4,565 bases of DNA from NCBI RefSeq assembly GCF_003334335.1, contig NZ_QOWQ01000078.1; one strand, written 5' to 3'. The DNA is from Escherichia coli. GTDB lineage: Bacteria; Pseudomonadota; Gammaproteobacteria; Enterobacterales; Enterobacteriaceae. Position numbers and translations under genes: made by a program. Below, piece after piece: positions 1,626-1,727 of the stretch (its first letter is position 1; each line of letters starts with the position of its first letter). The notes under the pieces were generated by a model. The model saw only the letters and a program-made list of their open reading frames with translations, was not told where the DNA came from and searched no databases.

Positions 1626-1641
1626 AGAGACTCCCGTATAC

Positions 1642-1727
1642 TTTCTTCAAAAATAAATGAAAATAGTTCTTATTTCAATTACGGAAAGACTCTTTTTTAA
1701 GCAAAGAATAGAAATATGAATAAAAAT
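1642..1727 (-). promoter_or_regulatory. Putative bfd-bfr promoter region: candidate sigma70 −35 TTGAAA (+ coords 1673-1678) and −10 TATTTT (1650-1655) with a 17-nt spacer, embedded in AT-rich sequence with Fur-box-like A/T hexamers
   Basis: − strand reads …AATTGAAATAAGAACTATTTTCATTTATTTTTGAAG… about 25 nt upstream of the bfd SD/ATG. Fur regulation of bfd is established; the exact Fur box could not be pinned down by eye (best match about 10/19 to consensus). Confidence 0.3.

Follow-up and report, generated by a model that had tools for sequence, protein, structure and literature searches.

We assign a probability of about 0.93 to the reading that the segment between positions 1626 and 1727 holds the sigma-70 promoter from which bfd-bfr is transcribed and that this promoter incorporates a single high-affinity Fur operator. 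The reading is backed by a sequence match to Fur sites, the place of that match in the promoter, its conservation, the occupancy of the region by Fur in vivo, and the derepression of bfd when fur is deleted; we infer that the physical mechanism is occlusion of the promoter, and likewise the exact start of transcription and the number of Fur dimers bound.

The window (the whole 4,565-nucleotide stretch analyzed here) is Escherichia coli K-12 DNA. Its open reading frames comprise gspO (177-854, plus strand) and, on the minus strand, bfr (883-1359; bacterioferritin, the downstream gene of the operon), bfd (1431-1625; bacterioferritin-associated ferredoxin, 64 amino acids), and chiA (1794-4178), together with the 3' end of tufA; RefSeq records of identical DNA annotate bfr and bfd as well. 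Many E. coli chromosomes annotated bfr/bfd/chiA match positions 1300-1900 with 100% identity, and MG1655 (NC_000913.3) 3466700-3467300 is an exact substring of the window, such that a window position equals the NC_000913.3 position minus 3465366. The segment 1626-1727 lies in the spacer upstream of bfd and must be read on the minus strand. Its A+T content is 75%, versus 52% in the window as a whole, and an Rfam scan of the entire window returned no match. At the other end of the operon, the 28-bp gap between the convergent gspO and bfr genes holds a perfect G+C-rich inverted repeat at 857-876, CGGGAGGG-ttct-CCCTCCCG, which looks like a bidirectional terminator shared by the two genes.

The Fur box and its place in the promoter

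Fur sites were sought with a symmetric 19-bp log-odds matrix (consensus AATGATAATCATTATCATT) built from 20 E. coli sites other than that of bfd: fepA-fes, fepD-entS, entC, fecI, fecA, ryhB, yoeA, gpmA, sodA, fhuF, sufA, ydiE, cirA, efeU, yqjH, mntH, fhuA, exbB, fiu, and mntP. Their coordinates come from Table 4 of Chen et al. 2007 (PMC2189734), which states, for the strongest predicted Fur site per cluster, where it lies in the genome and how far it is from the gene start; sequences were taken from NC_000913.3, and the shift was verified against annotated gene starts. In the window, the matrix locates a 19-bp Fur box, AATGAAAATAGTTCTTATT, at 1656-1674 with a score of 21.0 bits; its 7-1-7 core, TGAAAAT-A-GTTCTTA, covers 1658-1672, and both are centered on 1665. 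The 20 reference sites, scored with each left out in turn, have a mean of 21.4 bits, the lowest being 16.1, so the bfd box scores like them. The runner-up to 1665 across all 4565 bases reaches 6.4 bits, and within the bfd-chiA spacer, only 1712 also scores above zero, with 0.7 bits.

Chance rarely produces such a score: the exact tail probability of at least 21.0 bits is 5e-8 per position if the background is uniform and 2e-6 if it is 70% A+T, shuffling the bfd-chiA spacer 2000 times gives such a score once, and in 38 kb of MG1655 control DNA, all matches of 16 bits or more belong to the fepA-fes, fepD-entS, fepB-entC, sufA, and ydiE promoters. Position 1665 corresponds to NC_000913.3 3467031 and NC_000913.2 3465053, which is exactly the bfd coordinate of Chen et al. 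2007. Those authors describe the bfd cluster as three overlapping sites over 31 bp, scoring 20.2 bits and lying 40 bp upstream of the start (PMC2189734); in contrast to the three overlapping sites of their model, our matrix scores on the K-12 allele are negative at offsets of 3, 6, and 12 bp on either side of the box. An extra site 6 bp from the box receives 4.6 bits in strains W and 042 and 1.9 bits in Sakai. Judged by its sequence, the bfd Fur site is one strong 19-bp box and not a degenerate one.

Such a box is easily missed without a matrix. It agrees with the classical consensus GATAATGATAATCATTATC at 11 of 19 positions and with the 7-1-7 motif TGATAATnATTATCA at 10 of 14, levels that shuffles of the A+T-rich spacer equal 20-60% of the time; of the 13 bases that the ChIP-exo consensus TGAnAATnATTcTCA specifies, it retains 11. 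Departing from the classical consensus at the other 8 positions and keeping mainly those of high information, it is hard to spot by eye. Counting matches to GATAATGATAATCATTATC, to the 7-1-7 motif, or to arrays of hexamers was tried as a detector and discarded, since none of these counts separates the real site from shuffles, and the weight matrix was used instead. These results bear on an earlier note on this DNA, which had found no high-scoring 19-bp Fur box and had suggested a degenerate or multi-hexamer site. The former statement holds only for simple mismatch counting, and the latter gives way to a single strong box (21.0 bits here, 20.2 bits in Chen et al. 2007). The note had also named a weight-matrix scan as the way to check its suggestion, and that scan, now run, finds a strong site and favors control by Fur.

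The box sits inside a promoter. A scan for sigma-70 elements finds one such site on the minus strand, TTGAAA-17-TATTTT, which matches the consensus hexamers at 9 of 12 positions (about one chance match of this kind is expected in the 600 bp scanned); the same TTGAAA-17-TATTTT is listed for bfd-bfr, in the bfd/chiA spacer, in the genomic SELEX of RpoD holoenzyme by Shimada et al. 2014 (PMC3946193). The -35 hexamer TTGAAA lies at 1673-1678 and the -10 hexamer TATTTT at 1650-1655, promoter geometry predicts a start at 1642-1644, about 7 nucleotides past the -10, and the bfd Shine-Dalgarno sequence GGGAG, whose extended form cGGGAG is kept in orthologues, can be read at 1631-1635. The 19-bp box thus fills the 17-bp spacer, overlapping the -35 by 2 bp and abutting the -10, and would span about -13 to -31 if transcription starts near 1643. 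A literature search for a mapped bfd transcription start found none, so the overlap of box and promoter rests on the predicted promoter and on SELEX binding. Two points of the earlier note are borne out: the segment is an A+T-rich control region of bfd-bfr that holds a promoter, and the Fur-like string that the note quoted, TGAAAATAGTTCTTATTTCA, located as described at 1658-1677, overlaps the -35/-10 region, with the box at 1656-1674 between the hexamers.

Comparison across species points the same way. Scanning one genome per species for the Bfd protein yielded 80 gammaproteobacterial loci, and in the 200 bp preceding bfd, 79 of them have a Fur box that scores 10 bits or more; in 70, the score is 16 bits or more. 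The box center falls 40-49 bp upstream of the ATG, mostly at 43 (46 Enterobacterales loci). With the sequences aligned on the box, the information profile stays high from the -35 TTG, which is nearly invariant among 47 Enterobacterales promoters, through the box to a conserved TAcaCT of other genera, with which the K-12 -10 TATTTT aligns, and it is flat upstream of the -35. Like E. coli, Pseudomonas, Alcanivorax, Marinomonas, and others carry boxes upstream of bfd homologues (13.8-23.3 bits); in Pseudomonas and the other gammaproteobacteria, its distance to the start codon ranges from 11 to 61 bp, and the promoters cannot be aligned with those of Enterobacterales.

Fur occupancy and repression of bfd in vivo

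Published genome-wide data place Fur at this locus. By ChIP-seq in MG1655, Beauchene et al. 2015 found bfd among the operons both bound and regulated by Fur, and they showed that Fur represses lacZ fused to the bfd promoter, with a stronger effect when oxygen is absent (PMC4676285). In Dataset 2 of Gao et al. 2023, ChIP-exo peaks are assigned to bfd in eight E. coli strains, all of them under iron-replete conditions only, and deletion of fur raises bfd by log2 2.3-7.3 in these same strains (PMC10164565); unlike the 2015 ChIP-seq study (PMC4676285), that table has no bfd entry for MG1655 (PMC10164565). The expectation that bfd is Fur repressed is thus confirmed by the lacZ fusion and by the deletion of fur (PMC4676285, PMC10164565).

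We mapped the bfd ChIP-exo peaks onto sequence for six of the eight strains, leaving out Sakai and KO11FL. The Sakai coordinates as printed fall inside the bfd coding sequence of its record, which suggests that the paper used different coordinates. In the four strains of the K-12 type, the peaks lie 53-65 (W3110), 52-64 (BL21(DE3)), 54-66 (CFT073), and 53-65 (ATCC 8739) bp upstream of the ATG, equivalent to window positions 1677-1691 and hence 13-25 bp upstream of the box center at 1665; the peaks of W (43-55 bp upstream of the bfd ATG) and 042 (34-46 bp) both overlap the box. In the same ChIP-exo data set, peaks at gpmA, exbB, fhuA, and sodA are offset by 0-30 bp from the strongest sites of Chen et al., and we accordingly read the 13- to 25-bp offset at bfd as scatter of peak calling; weak secondary Fur contacts upstream of the box are possible.

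Separate iron-replete peaks assigned to bfr are reported for W, 042, and Sakai (PMC10164565). Those of W and 042 fall about 95-107 nucleotides inside the bfd coding sequence, near window positions 1519-1531 (420-432 of the W locus), and for Sakai, a matching pair of peaks is listed, 149 bp apart. A second sequence-defined Fur site under these peaks was sought in the bfd coding sequence of the W-type loci and of the window and rejected, the best matrix score being -1.0 bits; a second Fur-associated signal inside bfd, without matrix support, is a weaker possibility.

Could the resemblance to a Fur site be a matter of chance in A+T-rich DNA, with the iron response of bfd being indirect (for example, through RyhB or another regulator)? 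The failure of simple consensus counting to tell the site from a shuffled spacer leans that way, as does the record of binding in vitro: our literature search found neither a footprint nor a gel shift on a bfd fragment, and Table 4 of Chen et al. 2007 has no F or G flag for bfd. Set against the rarity of 21.0 bits among the shuffles, the retention of the box at a fixed position in nearly all of the gammaproteobacterial loci, and iron-dependent Fur occupancy in vivo joined with derepression of bfd on deletion of fur, we consider such a coincidence exceedingly improbable.

If the box acts as a promoter-blocking operator, Fe2+-Fur bound to it would keep RNA polymerase off the promoter when iron is plentiful. 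When iron is scarce, Fur would lose its metal and leave the DNA, bfd would be transcribed, and the Bfd ferredoxin would then help to release the iron stored in bacterioferritin, in keeping with the described role of Bfd in aiding iron mobilization from bacterioferritin (PMC4676285).

The A+T-rich tract between the promoter and chiA

The earlier note had also singled out repeated A/T hexamers, GAATAGAAATATGAATAA, as a possible part of a Fur site; the string lies where the note put it, at 1706-1723. The only positive matrix score there is the 0.7 bits at 1712 noted above, which provides no evidence for a Fur site. Against GATAAT, the hexamers in the frame used by the note match at 3+3+3 = 9 of 18 positions; the best frame nearby matches at 13 of 18, which 19% of shuffles equal and which is thus at the level of chance. 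No (GATAAT)n array of at least three adjacent hexamers above chance, counting GATAAT and ATTATC alike, was found at 1706-1723, and the hexamers are conserved neither in other genera nor in the other E. coli haplotype. As the information profile is flat upstream of the -35, they also receive no comparative support.

Part of the tract looks like another kind of signal. On the minus strand, directly past the chiA stop codon, tandem G+C-rich hairpins with U-rich tails occupy 1728-1787. The sequence scan places the first terminator-like hairpin at 1764-1787, followed by CATTTTTTGT, and the second, of 11 pairs, at 1728-1752, followed by the tail ATTTTTATTC, which covers 1718-1727 and runs into the 1706-1723 string. 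Together, the two hairpins reach -35.3 kcal/mol (z = -7.3 against shuffles), and from their sequence, they look like a double intrinsic terminator that would insulate the bfd promoter from read-through out of chiA.

A broader operator would have Fur polymerize from the primary box over GATAAT-like hexamers to about position 1727, with 1706-1723 as its secondary, low-affinity part. This arrangement would suit the four K-12-type ChIP-exo peaks upstream of the box, the 75% A+T of the region, and the secondary footprints and clusters of sites at other Fur promoters (Chen et al., PMC2189734). We nevertheless hold it to be unlikely: between 1674 and 1727, matrix scores are negative or, at best, the same 0.7 bits, hexamer matching is at chance level, other genera and the W-type allele share no conserved sequence upstream of the -35, and binding and repression by Fur persist in the W-type allele, from which these hexamers are missing. 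Peak offsets like those at bfd also occur at single strong sites such as gpmA, and 1718-1727 is the tail of a terminator. With a score of 0.7 bits, hexamers at chance level, no conservation, and a position in or next to the chiA terminator tail, the 1706-1723 string drops out as a Fur site.

Another view of the same tract takes it to be mainly a terminator tail, an UP element, or a binding region for a nucleoid protein of the H-NS type; Fur would act by displacing such a protein, as has been reported at ftnA, and not through blockage of RNA polymerase. It draws on the two terminator hairpins with their U-rich tails across 1718-1787, on the A+T-rich DNA directly upstream of the -35, and on the precedent of anti-silencing at ftnA (cited in PMC4676285). 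At bfd, however, Fur represses and does not activate, and the box is part of the core promoter, not of the DNA upstream of it, so anti-silencing of the ftnA kind does not fit; functions of this sort may explain 1700-1790, but they do not explain 1650-1678. We regard this view as considerably less probable still than the broader operator, and the reading that we retain is that of a single Fur box within the core promoter.

Two bfd-bfr haplotypes and the place of bfd in the Fur regulon

Two bfd-bfr haplotypes, deeply diverged from each other, exist in E. coli: of 5426 complete genomes, 3161 have the K-12 type and 2256 the W type. In the K-12 type, the operon is flanked by chiA upstream and gspO downstream; in the W type (W, 042, Sakai), tuf lies directly upstream of bfd. 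The two types share 76.9% identity in the bfd coding sequence, 84.9% in the 5' part of bfr, and about 70% in the promoter, where the W-type sequence, TTGTAATCATAACyATTCTCATTTACACT, represents the general enterobacterial consensus and not the K-12 sequence. Although their promoters differ in the -35, the -10, and the 5' untranslated region (UTR), both haplotypes keep the Fur box in the same place between -35 and -10, with 21.0 bits in the K-12 type and 19.6-20.2 bits in the W type.

A difference in the strength of Fur repression between the alleles was looked for and not found: the log2 changes after deletion of fur show no trend, being 7.3, 3.1, 2.4, and 5.2 in strains of the K-12 type and 3.6, 3.1, 5.5, and 2.3 in those of the W type (assuming the strain order of the published table). 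The 5' UTR between the -10 and the Shine-Dalgarno sequence (CTTTGCGCAGAAATTGAACGGGAG, +10 to +35 past the box center) is well conserved between the W type and many enterobacterial genera, and the K-12 allele carries TTTGAAGAAAGTATACGGGAG in its place. The conserved segment may be a further regulatory element of the common allele.

Kosakonia, Enterobacter, and Trabulsiella share the gene order chiA-bfd-bfr-gspO, and a pan-genome study reports that bfd and bfr cosegregate with gsp and chiA (PMC11390585), which together suggest that the K-12-type bfd-bfr travels with a chiA-gsp accessory module. At somewhat less than even odds, the K-12-type genes, with their own promoter and Fur box, would be a foreign copy that arrived on this chiA-gsp (type II secretion) module and replaced the ancestral bfd-bfr beside tuf. 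In the window, the N-terminal part of ChiA (3480-4100, minus strand) consists of three repeated modules of about 90 amino acids, in which a WW..NPWR motif recurs and which are joined through proline-rich linkers such as PAPDVKPAPDVKPAPDVQPAP; in BL21(DE3), the chiA locus is annotated as a shorter "carbohydrate-binding protein."

The bfd Fur operator is a classical, probably promoter-blocking site that the literature already describes. The published K-12 bfd Fur site (Chen 2007; Beauchene 2015; Gao 2023) is the same locus, with the same nucleotides and the same repression by iron-Fur, and we find no difference from it. Like bfd, fhuA, entC, fepA-fes, ryhB, and gpmA have a 19-bp palindromic box near AATGATAATCATTATCATT (16-28 bits) that lies over the core promoter and to which Fur binds only under iron-replete conditions. 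Unlike these classical promoters, bfd differs at 8 of 19 positions from the textbook consensus and, by the matrix, has one site in place of a cluster shifted by 6 bp. What we add to the literature is an independent matrix score, the comparison of 80 loci, and the placement of the ChIP-exo peaks on the sequence. That a validated site should match the consensus at 11 of 19 positions, no better than shuffles, and yet score 21 bits shows by-eye consensus matching to be unreliable in A+T-rich spacers.

For the biology of E. coli, these results confirm the existing annotation and bring nothing new: bfd-bfr belongs to the Fur regulon as a standard member, with its operator where that of a promoter-blocking repressor is expected. 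Basal strength or the tightness of Fur repression could vary between the two alleles, and with it the mobilization of stored iron among strains; that both diverged haplotypes keep the operator could matter when iron-storage physiology is compared from strain to strain.
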